The notes beneath the pieces were generated by a model that had not been told where the DNA came from, searched no databases, and saw only the letters and a list, made by a program, of their open reading frames with translations. From Rickettsiales bacterium (GTDB lineage Bacteria; Pseudomonadota; Alphaproteobacteria; Rickettsiales; UBA1997): a DNA stretch of 26,408 bases. Below are positions 1-8,961 of the stretch, one piece after another; the stretch's first letter is position 1; each line of letters opens with the position of its first letter. The stretch is from NCBI GenBank assembly GCA_049423025.1, contig JBMSPZ010000001.1, positions 1 to 26,408 of the forward strand. The letters run 5' to 3'. A program made the translations under genes and the position numbers.

Positions 1-139
1 CGAATTTGATTGCTCGGTTGCAATTTATAATTTGCTCTTCCAGCTTCACCACATTTCGGGGGGGTTCCGAATAAGATTATGTCGTATCTTAATAAAATGT
101 TATCTTCCAGCTTCACCACATTTCGGGGGGGTTCCGAAT
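1..139. CRISPR. CRISPR array, truncated by the window edge: two full 37-nt repeats plus the tail of a third, and two 30-nt spacers
   Basis: Identical TCTTCCAGCTTCACCACATTTCGGGGGGGTTCCGAAT at 36-72 and 103-139 (period 67). Window positions 1-5 (CGAAT) match the repeat's last 5 nt exactly one period earlier. Unique spacers at 6-35 and 73-102. Internal palindrome TTCGG-N7-CCGAA. Orientation unresolved. Confidence 0.88.
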
Positions 140-140
140 A

Positions 141-174
141 GGAACCGCCCGATTTATTGTGGCTGTAGATGGAA
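141..174. ncRNA. Inverted anti-repeat directly abutting the outermost CRISPR repeat (candidate tracr-like or scaffold RNA segment)
   Basis: Pairs with repeat 103-139: GGTTCC(130-135)/GGAACC(141-146), TCGGG(123-127)/CCCGA(148-152), CCACA(116-120)/TGTGG(158-162), CA/TG, CT/AG, TTCCA(105-109)/TGGAA(170-174). Hand count about 25 bp. Function is inferred. Confidence 0.6.
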
Positions 175-280: not shown

Positions 281-360
281 CTGTGGCTGTAAATTTTATT
301 TGCATAAAATTAATTACCACAGTTGCTATAAATTTTATTTGCATAAATTTAATTGCCAAG
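281..360 (-). repeat. Tandem ~39-nt hairpin-forming repeat in the 3' flank of the HEPN gene
   Basis: GCTGTAAATTTTATTTGCATAAAATTAATTACCAC from 286 and GCTATAAATTTTATTTGCATAAATTTAATTGCCAA from 325. Unit 1 has stem AATTTTAT/ATAAAATT closed by CTGTGG(281-286)/CCACAG(317-322). The loop reads GCAA (GNRA) on the minus strand. Confidence 0.7.
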
Positions 361-370
361 ATTTTATTAC

Positions 371-2152
371 TTAATTTTTGGCGTTTATTTTTTTTAAAAC
401 TTGTCGATGAGCATCAAAAATTAAAGAAGTTTTAAGCGAAGAATAATAATGAAATTTGATTAACATTAACTTCTTCTTGTCAATTTGTTTATGTTTAATG
501 ATTTCCTTAATTTTTTTATTAATTATTTTATGGACTTTAGATCTTGGTTTGCTATTTTTTGAACAATTATTTTCAAGGTTTGCTTGGACTTTTTTTGAAT
601 TATTATTTTCTAAATTTGCATCGTCTTTATTGTTTTTATTAATCCTAATATCTATTTTTTGAAAATTACCATTTTCATCAGAAAATCGTAAAAATAAATA
701 ATCATTTTTGGTAAATAATTGATAAAGACGATTTAAAAATTCCTTGGCAATTTTATCTAAATTTTGGTGATGATATTCTTCAATAAAATCAATAGCGATT
801 TGCAAATTATTAGAAAAATTTTCTGCAATTGATAGGTTTTGCTTATCTTGCGAAAGCAATATTTGCAATATATTGGAGTGGTCAATATTGTTTCTTAAGT
901 TTTTAAAATCGTTATTTTTTAATATTTTTCTATATGTTCCTAAAATATTATAATCTTGCCATTGCTGTTTAGATCTTTGTTTAGAAGATATATTATGAAT
1001 TTGATTATATTGTTGATTAATTTTATCGTAATTATCATTCAGCTCATTAAACTTATCGGTAAAATAAATTCGAAATAAAATATTAATTTCTAGGGCAAAA
1101 AGATAGATTTTATTGATTTCTTCAAAAGATTTTTGATGATCTTGTTGAGCTTTTTGATTATATTTATTTATAAATTCAGCAGATTTTTTAGGCTTTTTTT
1201 CTTCATCAATTTTAATATCTTTTATTTGATAAGGAATCATAATTTGCTCTTTAATTTTATCATAATTTTCTTTACCGATAAAAACATAATTTGTGGCATC
1301 AATGGTTAATTTTCCTTGGTTCTTGTGCTTAGATTTTCTTGAAGCCGAGTTGTTTGATATATTTTTTTGTTTATTCTTGAAAATAAATTTTAATTGGTTA
1401 ATTTCTTTTAATAATTCATTATCTTTTTGTAGCTTCGAATTGATTTTTGTTATAAAATCTTTTTTATCTTTTTTTATCTTATCCAAATTTTTTTTATATT
1501 CAGAATCCTTAAATTCAGATTCTTTTTGATTGTCATTTAGTAATTTCTTAAAATCAAATAATTGGTGATAAATTTCGTTACATAAATCGTGCGGAAGTAT
1601 CTTAAACAAGCCACCTTCAAGATTTTCTAAAAGGTTTTTTAGAATATTTTCATCAATTAAATCATTCTTAAAATTAAAATTTGCTCTGGGAAATTTATTC
1701 CTTTCATCTTCGAATTTTTGATAGTTTTGATCATTAATTTTTTGATTATTATTTTTATTATTATTTTTATTATTATTTTTATTATTATCCAAAATATGAT
1801 GAACCAGCCAATCTCTTAAAACATTAATTTTGATAAAAATATCCTCGAAATTTTTTTCATTTATATCAATTAAATGTTCAAATTTAATCTTGTTATAAAA
1901 ATTTTCTAAATTTTCAGTATTCTTATATTTTGTATTAGTTAAAAATTCTGGCTTGCCAAAAAAATCAGATGACTTATTTTTTTCATCTTTAATATTAAAA
2001 GCATCATTTCTAACTTGGCTAAAAATCTTATCGCATAGCGAGATGCAGGCTAATATTCTAAAGCGAATATTGTTTTGCTTGGCGATTTTTAATGCAGGGG
2101 TAATGTTTTTATTCTCTTTCCCATTTGCTTCGCCAACTTTACTAGCCAACAT
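371..2152 (-). CDS. Putative compact dual-HEPN CRISPR effector (Cas13-like RNase), 593 aa
   Basis: Two RxxxxH motifs: LRDWLVH (R113/H118, nt 1816-1799) and LRNNIDH (R420/H425, nt 895-878). K/N-rich and apparently helical. Adjacent to a CRISPR array with 30-nt spacers. No RuvC, HNH or Zn-finger motifs seen. The ORF is solid; the family call is an inference. Confidence 0.7.
   Translation of the reverse strand: MLASKVGEANGKENKNITPALKIAKQNNIRFRILACISLCDKIFSQVRNDAFNIKDEKNKSSDFFGKPEFLTNTKYKNTENLENFYNKIKFEHLIDINEKNFEDIFIKINVLRDWLVHHILDNNKNNNKNNNKNNNQKINDQNYQKFEDERNKFPRANFNFKNDLIDENILKNLLENLEGGLFKILPHDLCNEIYHQLFDFKKLLNDNQKESEFKDSEYKKNLDKIKKDKKDFITKINSKLQKDNELLKEINQLKFIFKNKQKNISNNSASRKSKHKNQGKLTIDATNYVFIGKENYDKIKEQIMIPYQIKDIKIDEEKKPKKSAEFINKYNQKAQQDHQKSFEEINKIYLFALEINILFRIYFTDKFNELNDNYDKINQQYNQIHNISSKQRSKQQWQDYNILGTYRKILKNNDFKNLRNNIDHSNILQILLSQDKQNLSIAENFSNNLQIAIDFIEEYHHQNLDKIAKEFLNRLYQLFTKNDYLFLRFSDENGNFQKIDIRINKNNKDDANLENNNSKKVQANLENNCSKNSKPRSKVHKIINKKIKEIIKHKQIDKKKLMLIKFHYYSSLKTSLIFDAHRQVLKKINAKN
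1745..1788. repeat. 12-bp in-frame tandem repeat (ATTATTATTTTT x3.7) encoding NNKNNNKNNNKNNN
   Basis: Read directly from the sequence; lies just after the first RxxxxH motif. Confidence 0.9.
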
Positions 2153-4841: not shown

Positions 4842-6167
4842 ATGAAAAAAATTGCAATTATAGGTTTTGGTTTTTGTGGAATTATGGTATTTGGCAATAT
4901 TTTAAAAAAAATCTCTCAAGAAAAATCTAAAAATAACATCAAATTTATAATTTTTGAAAAAGATGGCCTGTCTTCTGTCGGAGCAGGTTTTAGCAATTTT
5001 AACGATAATTATATTTTGAATGTTCCTGTAAAAAAAATGAGTCCATTTGATGATCAGCCCAATTGCTTTTTGGATTTTTTGCAAGAAAATTATCCTGCAA
5101 TTTATGAAAAATCTGGAGCTGACGGCTTCGTTCCTCGCAATATTTATGGTGAATTTTTGAAAAAAATTCGCCAAGAGTTTTTTCAATTAGCTAGTGATTT
5201 AAAAATTGAATATGAGGTTTTTGAAAAGCAAGTTTTGGATGTTGAAGATGGCTTTAAAATTGTTGGCGATGGCATAATTATTGAAGCCGATGAAGTTGTA
5301 CTTTCTTCAAGTTTTCGACAATCGCAATTAAATTATGTTGAAAATGATGAAAATTTTATCTCGTCCCTATGGTCAAAAAATTCCGTAAATTTTCATAAAA
5401 AAAATAATTTTAATATTGATGACAAAATATGTATAATTGGCACTGGATTAAGCTCTGTTGATGTTTTGGTTGGACTTAATTCTAAAAATTTTTCTGGCAA
5501 AATTTATGCAATTTCTCGCCGAGGAAATTTTCCAAAACCGCATTTTTCTCATCATAATATTTTACCTACTAACAACCAAATTGATATTATCGATGAAAGC
5601 GATGCCAGAGCGGGAATAATTAATATCTCTTTAAAATTTAGAAATTTTTTAAGAAATTATAAAACTCTTGACTTGCGACATCTAATCGATTCAATTCGTC
5701 CGAAAACCAAATCTTTTTGGCATAATTTGGATGAAAAAAATAAAAAGCTTTTTTTAAAAAAAATTCTCCCTTATTGGAATATTTTCCGCCACCGCGTTCC
5801 AAATATTTCCCTAGAGATAATTGATAAAATGATTAAAAATAATCAATTACAAATTTTTAAAAACTCGATTAAATCAATTCATAAAAAAAATAATAAGTTT
5901 GTGGTTGATTTGGGTGGTCAAAAAATTGAATGTGATTATTTAATAAATTGCTTAGGATTTGATTTTAATGTTAAAAATTATCCATTAATTAATTCAATGT
6001 TGAATAAAAATTTATTAAAAAAAGATATGATTTTTATGCATAGCAACAACAGCAATATACATTTAGTCGGCGGGCTGAATATAAGTCGAGACTTCGAAAT
6101 TACTGCAGTTCCAGACCTTCGAGTTGATGCAAATTTAGTTGCAAATAAAATCTTTGCCAATATTTGA
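4842..6167 (+). CDS. FAD/NAD(P)-binding oxidoreductase (FAD-NAD-binding_9-like)
   Basis: N-terminal IIGFGFCG, LNVPVKKMS, FVPRNIYGEFL, second IIGTGLSSVD motif, SRRG. 3-nt gap from the upstream small gene. Confidence 0.8.
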   Translation: MKKIAIIGFGFCGIMVFGNILKKISQEKSKNNIKFIIFEKDGLSSVGAGFSNFNDNYILNVPVKKMSPFDDQPNCFLDFLQENYPAIYEKSGADGFVPRNIYGEFLKKIRQEFFQLASDLKIEYEVFEKQVLDVEDGFKIVGDGIIIEADEVVLSSSFRQSQLNYVENDENFISSLWSKNSVNFHKKNNFNIDDKICIIGTGLSSVDVLVGLNSKNFSGKIYAISRRGNFPKPHFSHHNILPTNNQIDIIDESDARAGIINISLKFRNFLRNYKTLDLRHLIDSIRPKTKSFWHNLDEKNKKLFLKKILPYWNIFRHRVPNISLEIIDKMIKNNQLQIFKNSIKSIHKKNNKFVVDLGGQKIECDYLINCLGFDFNVKNYPLINSMLNKNLLKKDMIFMHSNNSNIHLVGGLNISRDFEITAVPDLRVDANLVANKIFANI

Positions 6168-7433
6168 TTATATCATTTTCTTTGGGTCAAGGCACTAAAT
6201 TTGATTGGTGTTAAGAACTATGTTTAACAAACAATGAATTATTTTGATAACATTAATTTTTAACACTATCTCCCCATCACTGGACCTGAAGCTGCCACTG
6301 CAACTGGGCTAGAAATAGTATGACCTCTCAAAATCTCTAAAGTTTTTTTGGCCACAACACATTTTTCTTGCAAACTCAATTTTTTATGAGGGTCATCTAT
6401 ATCTGAAAATTTTAATTTATTTATACTTTCCAGTTCAACCTTATAATTTCCAAAATCAAAATTTTGCTGCTGAAATCGTCGCCTTTGGGAAACCAAATAT
6501 TCCTTTATAGCTATTTTGTTATCATGGTAATCCATAATAACTCTTAAATGATTATTCAAATTAGATTTAGTTACTTCGTCAACTGCTTGTTTTCTAGATG
6601 ATCCTTGCACATCAACTGAATTTGCAAATTGAATTTCATTACCATCTACAAATATTCCAACATATTTTTTTCCATTATATTCAACTTCAATTAAATCATC
6701 ATGATCTACTTTTTTAAATTTAACACCCGTTTCTTCTTCATCAAATGACAACTTATCTTGCTTCCTATTTAATAGTTGTGCAGGAATAGAAAATACTTGT
6801 TCATGACGAGTTAATAACTTAGAAGTAGTTTTTTTTTGATCTAACATTGAAATTTCATAAGCCAGTCTTTCCTTGTTATAATTTGAATCCAATTTACTAA
6901 CATTTTCTAAACTTAATTCTATTGCTTTTTTTATCATTAAACTTTCTACTTCTGAATCTTGTTGTTCTATTGGGGGTTGATAACTTGCTGGAGCATCGAC
7001 TGAATCAAGGTTTTCAAATAAATTTTTGCAATTTTGACCAAGATTTTGTTCGAGTGCTAAAAAAATATCATGATGTGTTTTCATTCCACCGAATTCATCG
7101 TCGCTTTCATTAACATATTTTACACATGCCATTAATTGTCTCAATTTTTCATTTTCCTCTAAATTATATTTTATGTATGGAAGTTCAGACGGCAGATGTC
7201 TATCACCTGGTTTTATATTTGAATTAAATATTCGAATATCAGAAACTAAATCTATAAGTTCATTGTCTCTAATTAGGTCTTGATATAATTTTATTAATTG
7301 AGGAGGTGTTAAATCTTTTATTTTTTTCATAAATTTAATTAAATAAAATTAATATATTTCAATAATTAATTCATATTTTTAAAAAAAATAAAAACTATGT
7401 AATTTTAAAATTATATCATTTTCTTTGGGTCAA
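6167..7433. mobile_element. 1,243-bp insert bounded by a 24-bp direct duplication of the fumC 3' end (att-like or target-site duplication)
   Basis: ATTATATCATTTTCTTTGGGTCAA is identical at 6167-6190 and 7410-7433; the latter includes the last 23 nt of fumC. No integrase or transposase inside. Confidence 0.7.
6266..7330 (-). CDS. Hypothetical protein (354 aa) with a UIM-like motif; possible host-directed effector
   Basis: Long ORF with no recognisable family. SEVESLMIKKAIELSLEN (aa 126-143) fits the ubiquitin-interacting motif pattern. Confidence 0.75.
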   Translation of the reverse strand: MKKIKDLTPPQLIKLYQDLIRDNELIDLVSDIRIFNSNIKPGDRHLPSELPYIKYNLEENEKLRQLMACVKYVNESDDEFGGMKTHHDIFLALEQNLGQNCKNLFENLDSVDAPASYQPPIEQQDSEVESLMIKKAIELSLENVSKLDSNYNKERLAYEISMLDQKKTTSKLLTRHEQVFSIPAQLLNRKQDKLSFDEEETGVKFKKVDHDDLIEVEYNGKKYVGIFVDGNEIQFANSVDVQGSSRKQAVDEVTKSNLNNHLRVIMDYHDNKIAIKEYLVSQRRRFQQQNFDFGNYKVELESINKLKFSDIDDPHKKLSLQEKCVVAKKTLEILRGHTISSPVAVAASGPVMGR

Positions 7434-8961
7434 CCCATTCATTAAATTGCTGTTCGCTGACTAAGCCGAGTTCGAGAGCTGACTGCTTCAATGTTGTGCC
7501 GTCATGATGAGCTTTTTTGGCGATTTTAGCTGAGTTATCATAGCCAATATATGGATTTAAAGCAGTTACCAACATTAATGAATTATTTAATAATTCGGTA
7601 ATTCTTTCTTGATTAGCAACAATTCCAAGCAAGCAATTATCGATAAAACTATTGATACCGTCGGCAATTAAATTAATCGATTCTATAATGTTGCGAATAA
7701 TCATCGGGCGAAACACATTTAACTCGAAATGCCCATTCATTCCACCAAGAGTGATAGCGTGATGATTGCCGATAACTTGGCAGGCAAGCATTGTTAAAGC
7801 TTCACACTGTGTTGGATTAACCTTACCGGGCATAATTGATGAACCCGGTTCATTTTCGGGCAACGAAATTTCACCCAAACCTGAACGAGGACCAGAAGCT
7901 AAAAAGCGAATATCATTGGCAATTTTCATAAGCGAAGTAGCGGTGGCATTAAGAGCGCCAGAGAAATTAACCAAATCATCATTACAAGCTAGGGCAAAAA
8001 ATTTATTTTTGTTACTAAAGAAATTATCGGCATAATTTAGTCCAAGCTTTGCTAAGTTAGAATCCTTAACCTGCCAATGACCGTCGTCAGCGTTGGTTCT
8101 GCATAATTTTAAATTCATTAAATCTTGGTGCAATTTTTTTAAACCCGAAACTTCGGTGATGACTTCAGCAAATTTATTGGCAAATTTTGGATGACAATTC
8201 AAGCCAGTGCCAACTGCCGTTCCGCCTTGAGCTAAATGACAAACAAAGGCGATAGATTGCGAAACAAAAACACTAGCGCTCTGAATCTGCACCTTGTAAG
8301 CCGAAAATTCTTGCCCCAAGGTAACTGGGGTAGCATCTTGAGTGTGAGTGCGACCAATTTTGATAATATCTTTAAATTCAGCTTCTTTATTGCCAAGTTC
8401 ATTGGCGAAACGAACTAAGGTTGGCAATAATTTTTGCACTGTGCTTAAAACGGTAGCAATATTCATGGCAGTTGGAAAGGTATCGTTTGAGCTTTGTCCT
8501 AAATTAACATGATCATTAGGATGAACGGGAGATTTTCCACCTTTTTTGCCAGTTGCTTTTTCGTTGGCAACTGAAGCAATAACTTCATTGACATTCATAT
8601 TAGTTTGCGTGCCTGAACCAGTTTGCCAAACCACCAAAGGAAAATGATTTTCGTAAAAATAATCGAATTTTTTTAAGATTTCATCAACTGCATCGATAAT
8701 TTTATCAGCTAATTCTGGGGAGAATTTTTTGAACTCATCGGATTTTGGGTCAATTGCCATCAAGTCCTTATTGGTAATAGCGCAGGCTTTTTTTATAAGG
8801 AGCATTGCATAAATAACTTCCTTTGGCATTTTATGTCCAGCATGTTGATTGCAAATTGGAAAATTTTGAACACTGCGTTGAGTTTGTGCGCCATAATAAG
8901 CTTGAGCGGGAACTTTAATTTCACCGAAAGAGTCGGTTTCGATACGAAAATCTTGAGTCAT
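7411..8961 (-). CDS. fumC: Class II fumarate hydratase, with insertions
   Basis: [39 protein letters not shown] and the signature [11 protein letters not shown]. Confidence 0.97.

Follow-up and report, generated by a model that had tools for sequence, protein, structure and literature searches.

A conserved leader-repeat hairpin, predicted at a CRISPR array beside a candidate compact HEPN effector gene of a freshwater Rickettsiales genome

Introduction

According to Migur et al. (EMBO J 2026; PMC13187072), type VI arrays with a spacer-then-repeat layout begin with a repeat that has no acquired spacer ahead of it, and this first repeat would give rise to an extraneous crRNA with leader sequence as its guide. 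The end of the leader pairs with the first repeat and blocks both the binding and the processing of this repeat by Cas13b, which was shown in the VI-B2 system of Porphyromonas gingivalis (PMC13187072). Disruption of this hairpin can diminish the other crRNAs and weaken phage defence (PMC13187072). Leader-repeat hairpins have been predicted in the VI-B, VI-BtA and VI-F subtypes and in others, and no obvious leader-repeat hairpin was reported for the 'ancestral' (Cas13an) subtype (PMC13187072). A description of the leader-repeat hairpin has been available only since 2026, and tests of it are limited to a single Cas13b system.

In this study, we analysed the first 26.4 kb of a contig, hereafter called the window (26,408 nucleotides), that belongs to a 1.42-Mb metagenome-assembled genome of a Rickettsiales bacterium, 79% complete. 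The gene fumC (window 7411-8961) encodes a FumC that is 99% identical to those of two metagenome-assembled genomes, labelled 'Rickettsiales bacterium' and 'uncultured Rickettsia sp.', and 85-87% identical to those of several freshwater metagenome-assembled genomes of Rickettsiales or Alphaproteobacteria. These matches indicate that the host is a freshwater alphaproteobacterium with a small genome and a GC content of 30%.

Results

The CRISPR array is cut by the contig start and comprises two full, identical repeats (36-73 and 103-140, period 67). Unless stated otherwise, features are given on the minus strand, which is the strand of the neighbouring gene. In this direction, repeat 1 (103-140), the leader-proximal repeat and presumed site of spacer addition, is followed by spacer 1 (74-102, 29-30 nt), repeat 2 (36-73) and a segment (1-35) in which spacer 2 (6-35) is followed by the initial 5 nt of repeat 3 (1-5). 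Immediately ahead of repeat 1 is the anti-repeat (141-174), which forms the final 34 nt of the leader and is complementary to repeat 1; in plus-strand reading, 141-174 corresponds, with imperfections, to the reverse complement of the repeat next to it. The anti-repeat takes the place and has the approximate length of a spacer, and it occurs as a single copy in this assembly. Viral contigs searched with the repeat and with four spacers gave 0 matches in both cases, and the protospacer strand is therefore of no use for orienting the crRNA.

Folding with ViennaRNA turns the segment 95-185 into one long hairpin on the plus strand (-37.3 kcal/mol, z = -5.16) as well as on the minus strand (-33.0 kcal/mol, z = -4.87), and 0 of 200 shuffles were as good on either strand. 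The stem, with 24 bp here and 25 bp in the related locus L003, is interrupted by bulges and is closed by a 5-nt loop (136-140; UAUUC on the gene strand) that is formed by the first 5 nt of repeat 1. In total, 33 of the 38 repeat positions are spanned by the hairpin. The original prediction had described a bulged fold-back of this size with a 5-nt loop and had proposed that it competes with the TTCGG/CCGAA hairpin of the repeat itself. The fold-back proved to be as described, with 24-25 bp and a z of about -5, and the competition is decided in its favour because the long hairpin displaces the small one completely, with a pairing probability within the repeat of approximately 0. Without the anti-repeat, the repeat forms only its 5-bp hairpin (-4.8 kcal/mol).

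The same hairpin is found in each of the four related loci in which the downstream DNA is readable, namely, the window, L007, L003 (with L004 and L005) and L061, which belong to two clades. The minimum free energy of the hairpin in these loci is -29 to -35 kcal/mol, compared with -3.9 to -5.8 kcal/mol for the repeat alone, and in all four, most nucleotides of repeat 1 have a probability of approximately 1 of being paired with the leader and of approximately 0 of being paired within the repeat. When the full leader is included, 23.7 of 37 repeat-1 nucleotides of the window are expected to be paired with the leader, compared with 11.4 +/- 3.5 for shuffled leaders, and the range over the four loci is 23.6-25.1 nt against 11.4-13.3 nt. 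The observed pairing was reached by 1, 8, 2 and 6 of 150 shuffles in the four loci; the statistic is modest in two of them (6 and 8 of 150), and the tests are not independent because the loci are related.

The anti-repeat occupies the same place in all four of these loci (4/4), and the original prediction had named its absence from homologous loci as the result that would speak against it. On the gene strand, the order is always the stop codon, 140-215 nt of AT-rich sequence, CAGAATTAT, the anti-repeat, the 5-nt loop, and then the first repeat and the array. Between the clades, which share 46% protein identity, the anti-repeat is identical at 28 of 32 positions in an ungapped alignment and the repeat at 28 of 31, whereas the middle of the leader is identical at 59 of 117 positions and requires gaps. 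A comparison of fold and covariation across homologous loci, which had been suggested as a check, gave a divided result: the hairpin is present in all four, and compensatory double changes were found at none of its base pairs. Of 28 pairs, 21 are invariant, a few mismatches occur in some loci and not in others, and L061 has one broken pair; 89% of the cells are paired, compared with 29-56% in shifted registers. Given the lack of covariation, the structural support consists of the conservation of both arms.

A sigma-70-like promoter, TTGGCA-N16-TAAAAT (332-359, minus strand), which matches at 10 of 12 positions, is located directly beyond the stop codon of the gene, and its predicted transcription start is near 325. 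The form TTGG(C/T)A-N16/17-TAAAAT is present in all four loci (TTGGTA in L007, L003 and L061), and in the distant clade the promoter overlaps the last codons of the gene. The leader RNA upstream of the anti-repeat (175-324) is transcribed and AT-rich, with a conserved G5 run and the CAGAATTAT that abuts the anti-repeat. A second promoter-like site just before the anti-repeat (203-175) was dropped because the RNA contigs are continuous from approximately 324, and a short leader ORF (21 codons from approximately 307, minus strand) was disregarded because it is not conserved in L007.

Several other peculiarities of the leader deserve description. A tandem duplication (2 x 39 nt; about 276/280-357, minus strand) comprises promoter and leader sequence, and L007 has the unit only once. 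Over 19 positions, copy B (276-294) agrees with the anti-repeat (152-170) at 17, copy A has the repeat-like CTGTGGTAA inside it, and the two copies can pair (280-286 with 316-322). The leader segment 208-262 (minus strand) and its counterparts in L007, L003 and L061 keep a G5 run that precedes a U-run, which a short loop separates from an A-run; pairing between this G5 run and the repeats' C7 run would be possible.

The original prediction had placed the anti-repeat after the array's last repeat. In the locus L062, which represents the opposite end of such an array, the last two repeats, in the same reading direction, are progressively decayed; repeat decay is usual at the array end that is far from the leader. 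The loci L003 and L004 have an identical protein, leader and first repeat, and differ in the spacer that adjoins the first repeat; similarly, the RNA runs X17 and X18 have different spacers after repeat 1. Because of the promoter, the decayed repeats of the far end, the spacer turnover at repeat 1 and the RNA contigs, the anti-repeat most likely belongs to the leader and precedes the first repeat, which would reverse the earlier placement. With the strand so inferred, the hairpin is situated at the array end where transcription starts, beside the repeat at which spacers are added. Anyone who wishes to test the compact effector will need this orientation of the array.

Evidence of transcription was taken from four metatranscriptome runs of three studies, whose assembled contigs, which are strandless and carry no processing sites, were aligned to positions 1-1000. 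The contigs cover 104-310 (three runs) or 111-324 (the fourth run) with zero mismatches, and the region, whose silence would have counted against the original prediction, is thus transcribed. No contig of the four runs covers the gene over 371-1000, which argues against DNA carry-over. Among the words sampled in the RNA runs, 58-75% of those of 100-372 were found, compared with 6-8% of those of 1-2200. The contig of run X18 folds back at 324 onto 278-257 and then enters adapter sequence, as would be produced by self-priming through the 280-286/316-322 stem, which makes 324 a true end of the molecule. This position is 7-8 nt past the -10 box. At the level of contigs, the RNA is unbroken from the leader through the anti-repeat and repeat 1 into spacer 1, and the depth in X18 is 26 over the leader and 10-14 over the array units. 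Considering the promoter and the end at 324, the transcript is probably read from the minus strand. The public runs with the locus comprise metagenomes of freshwater, riverine, aquatic and marine origin.

The gene at 371-2152 (minus strand) encodes P0001, an orphan protein of 593 aa, and an array comes after the gene in the window, L007, L003-L005 and L061. The two RxxxxH motifs that had been noticed in its product are genuine in the sense that both, R113-H118 and R420-H425, are located in conserved blocks of every homologue that covers them. Their sequences, LR(N/D)WL(V/I)HH and LRN(N/A)IDHS, are kept in all of these homologues, and directly after the arginine of the first motif the window protein has D where the others have N. 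Searches of Pfam, NCBIfam, PADLOC and PDB sequences with P0001 gave no match. Among 5.8 + 1.8 billion proteins, only two clades of homologues were found (72-77% and 46% identical), and P0001 was not found in the 185,579 species genomes searched, in which a 16-nt core of the repeat gave single chance matches only and the published Cas13an2 repeat gave none. An AlphaFold model built from a 6-sequence alignment has a pLDDT of 39.4 and a pTM of 0.26; fold searches with this pLDDT-39 model (VIA-align) and searches of the ESM Atlas returned helical-bundle noise, the best Cas-related match having a Z of 5.8 over residues 28-124. On the basis of its two motifs and its position beside an array, we consider P0001 to be a candidate compact type VI-like HEPN effector and not a demonstrated Cas13.

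The homologue in L061 (528-2627, minus strand) has 699 aa, and six or seven tandem copies of a six-residue unit are located right after its second Rx4H motif. Among near-identical strains, whose flanks are 96-97% identical, the module of effector and array is either present or absent. In G001 (L146), dapB is directly joined to the DNA that follows the far end of the array in L062, whereas in G002 (L145) and in L006 only the N-terminal part of the gene is left, fused to that same downstream DNA. The DNA downstream of the array contains GC-rich palindromic units (CACCCTCCC...GGGAGGGT, GCTCCCC...GGGAGC) in an AT-rich background (L062 230-600; L146 4090-4400; L145 4630-4983; L006 3860-4020), and these units mark the deletion junctions. 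A tandem 16-nt unit occurs among the palindromes of G001, and the units resemble repetitive extragenic elements.

The genome also has a type II-C locus with cas9, cas1, cas2 and an array, which is located on contig C42 (L063, 1-2938; L154, equal to C42:3660-6679). Each of the II-C repeats contains a full promoter, TTGACT-N16-TAGAAT, and the II-C tracrRNA, upstream of cas9 (C42, approximately 5144-5260), combines a long anti-repeat with tail hairpins, a GC-rich terminator hairpin and a U-tract. The duplex of this tracrRNA with the repeat of the array beside P0001 amounts to -18.2 kcal/mol, compared with -44.6 kcal/mol with its own repeat; conversely, the anti-repeat of the window gives -11.6 kcal/mol with the II-C repeat and -35.0 kcal/mol with its own, which is the complementarity to the repeat that a tracrRNA would have. 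Because the non-cognate duplexes are weak, we reject both cross-talk with the II-C system and a reading of the anti-repeat as a type II tracrRNA.

The 36-nt II-C repeat and the repeat of the window (103-145 compared) match at 21 of 36 positions. The ends, TATTC... and ...AAGCTGGAA, and a 5-nt flank, GGAAC, are common to both arrays, a degree of likeness that 3 of 100,000 shuffles reach. This likeness suggests that the array beside P0001 may borrow the type II Cas1-Cas2, as has been proposed for Cas13an. The II-C array has the GGAAC flank and these repeat ends without an anti-repeat, and an anti-repeat is therefore probably not required for spacer insertion.

Discussion

The element described here has each computable feature of the leader-repeat hairpin class: a pairing that dominates the fold of the first repeat, that exceeds the pairing of shuffled leaders, that is located at the leader end, and that is conserved. 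By analogy with the Cas13b systems, we believe that the hairpin probably masks a surplus first repeat. In this mechanism, transcription would begin past the stop codon of the effector gene (approximately 324-325, minus strand) and would proceed through approximately 150 nt of leader, the anti-repeat, repeat 1 and the array. The anti-repeat would be made first, only 5 nt from repeat 1, and the two could snap into the 24-25 bp hairpin as soon as the repeat emerges. If the crRNA is built as guide-repeat (spacer and then repeat, as in Cas13b and Cas13an), repeat 1 would have no acquired spacer ahead of it, and a free repeat 1 would yield an 'extraneous' crRNA with leader sequence as its guide. The hairpin would hide repeat 1 from the effector, no such crRNA would be formed, and the effector would be reserved for crRNAs that carry spacers; at the same time, the DNA of repeat 1 would stay intact for the insertion of new spacers. 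We infer the strand of the RNA, the guide-repeat layout and the blocking of the effector on repeat 1. Other observations count against the mask: Cas13an, the nearest subtype in size, is reported to have no obvious hairpin of this kind, the repeat lacks the large internal hairpin of the Cas13b or Cas13an type, the effector finds no place among the Cas13 families, and the base pairs show no compensatory changes.

The original prediction had preferred a tracr-like RNA or a natural single guide, and neither is supported by the present results. A tracr-like RNA acting in trans would be freed from the leader and pair with each pre-crRNA repeat, and the duplex would be seen by the effector and perhaps by RNase III. 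Indeed, the repeats are identical and the anti-repeat is complementary to all of them, the imperfect duplex of 25 bp is a plausible RNase III substrate, and in X18 the leader is no less abundant than the array units. However, there is one anti-repeat per array and per genome, the 5-nt tether to repeat 1 favours an intramolecular hairpin that forms first, and the RNA contigs run unbroken into the spacer, unlike an RNA that is separate and has ends of its own. Neither a terminator nor a module of 3' hairpins comes after the anti-repeat (no terminator-like site was detected in 1-500, where the flank is AT-rich and has no GC-rich stem), whereas the bona fide tracrRNA of this genome is a separate gene with all of these parts. 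We know of no characterised type VI system that needs a tracrRNA, and we regard a trans-acting role as very improbable. A scaffold in cis, in which the effector binds the hairpin of anti-repeat and repeat 1, spacer 1 serves as the guide and the newest spacer is privileged, accords with the order of leader, anti-repeat, loop, repeat 1 and spacer 1, which is that of a single guide with a 5' scaffold, as in Cas12 single guides. The lone repeat has a weak 5-bp hairpin, whereas the Cas13an2 repeat alone is a long hairpin, and RNA of leader and repeat 1 is well represented in the RNA libraries. Nevertheless, arrays with six or more well-kept repeats, such as that of L061, cannot use a scaffold in cis; for the spacers beyond the first, which have none, the repeat alone must suffice. 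In addition, no processed product is in evidence, and the related small and Cas13b-like type VI systems have spacer-then-repeat crRNAs (PMC12165695), which argues against such a scaffold. The role in cis that the original prediction considered is thus upheld as a mask on a surplus repeat and not as a guide scaffold, for which we see little chance.

Terminator, antitoxin-like RNA and signal in the DNA are other explanations that must be weighed. The original prediction had listed a terminator, in which the last repeat of a plus-strand array and the anti-repeat would be the stem, and the related II-C repeats are indeed transcribed in the plus sense from promoters inside the repeats. The repeats of the window have no plus-strand promoter, the conserved promoter points the opposite way, and the RNA contigs do not stop at the hairpin but reach 310 or 324, which is 150-180 nt farther on. 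Furthermore, the plus-strand stem is followed by AUGAUAAUUCUG in the window and by AUUUAAUAAUUCUGCUGA in L003; a U-tract is lacking in the window, L007 and L003, and a terminator scan finds none. Orientation and the missing U-tract lead us to reject the terminator, which we consider hardly tenable. A regulatory or antitoxin-like function would mean that the leader hairpin, or a crRNA-like RNA derived from it with a repeat-complementary 'guide', restrains or autoregulates the HEPN RNase. Migur et al. left open a regulatory role for such RNAs (PMC13187072), and parallels are found in CRISPR-encoded antitoxin RNAs and in the RNA partner proposed for AbiF-like ancestors. The anti-repeat has the approximate length and the position of a spacer, and its sequence is as conserved as that of the repeat. 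However, a cmscan of 1-420 for the abiF RNA motif (RF03085) and other Rfam families, with E up to 10, gave only unrelated matches at chance level, pairing with its own repeat would keep the guide unavailable, and the known blocking role suffices to explain the element; we therefore consider this function improbable. The palindrome is located exactly at the leader-repeat junction, where spacers are inserted, and its first 5 nt, GGAAC, are common to the flank of the II-C array, as would be expected of a DNA-level signal for the spacer integrase; alternatively, the inverted repeat could be a leftover with no role. Against the signal, the II-C array, whose Cas1-Cas2 are the only ones found (in an assembly that is 79% complete), has GGAAC and no anti-repeat. 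Against the leftover, a neutral relic would not be expected to keep 28 of 32 positions while the neighbouring leader keeps approximately 50%, and on this comparison of sequences we reject it. Taken together, a signal in the DNA or a roleless leftover is an explanation to which we give very little weight.

It is unlikely, although worth stating, that the hairpin is more than a mask and acts as the scaffold or regulator of the effector. It might serve the newest spacer as a naturally fused guide, hold back the HEPN RNase as a crRNA-like RNA, or survive from a free-standing hairpin RNA that gave rise to this array. In the last of these cases, each repeat might retain only the loop and the 3' arm of a hairpin RNA that once stood alone. 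Each of these, if true, would for the first time make a step of a HEPN-based CRISPR system depend on an anti-repeat and would link the RNA-partnered Abi-type nucleases with Cas13. If the hairpin is a mask, as we consider probable, our understanding of type VI systems is unchanged; the case would add an example with an unusually complete anti-repeat, present in two clades, in RNA libraries of natural freshwater communities and in freshwater Rickettsiales. It would also extend the mechanism beyond the subtypes listed thus far, in contrast to its reported absence in the small Cas13an systems.

Compared with the tracrRNA of type II and some type V systems, the anti-repeat is likewise a repeat-complementary stretch encoded beside an array; unlike a tracrRNA, it is not a separate gene, it has no tail hairpins or terminator, and it is linked to a single repeat through a loop of 5 nt. 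The type II-A leader stem-loop (Liao et al. 2022), as far as it is summarised in PMC13187072, is similar in that a surplus first repeat pairs with the leader; in that summary, the II-A hairpin competes with the tracrRNA and favours the newest spacer, whereas the array studied here has no tracrRNA and its effector is an RNase candidate. The resemblance to Cas13an (PMC12165695) concerns the layout of the system: the effector is very small (429-577 aa there and 593-699 aa here) and has two Rx4H motifs, a lone gene is located by an array with repeats of approximately 36 nt and spacers of 30 nt and without adjoining adaptation genes, and another part of the genome carries a type II system with Cas1-Cas2. 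Nevertheless, sequence similarity between the effectors was not detected, and the Cas13an2 repeat folds into a long hairpin on its own. The VI-B2 system of P. gingivalis (PMC13187072) differs in that its effector is Cas13b and its repeat has a repeat-wide internal hairpin; here, the effector belongs to an unclassified family of 593-699 aa that is known from sequence alone, and the repeat has an internal hairpin of 5 bp. Like the VI-B2 hairpin, the hairpin of the window outcompetes the fold of the repeat, occupies the array end of transcription start and spacer addition, is conserved, and adjoins the gene of an effector with two HEPN motifs, without the involvement of a tracrRNA. As in the guide-repeat type VI hairpins in general (PMC13187072), it is the last 30-34 nt of the leader that pair with nearly the whole of the first repeat.
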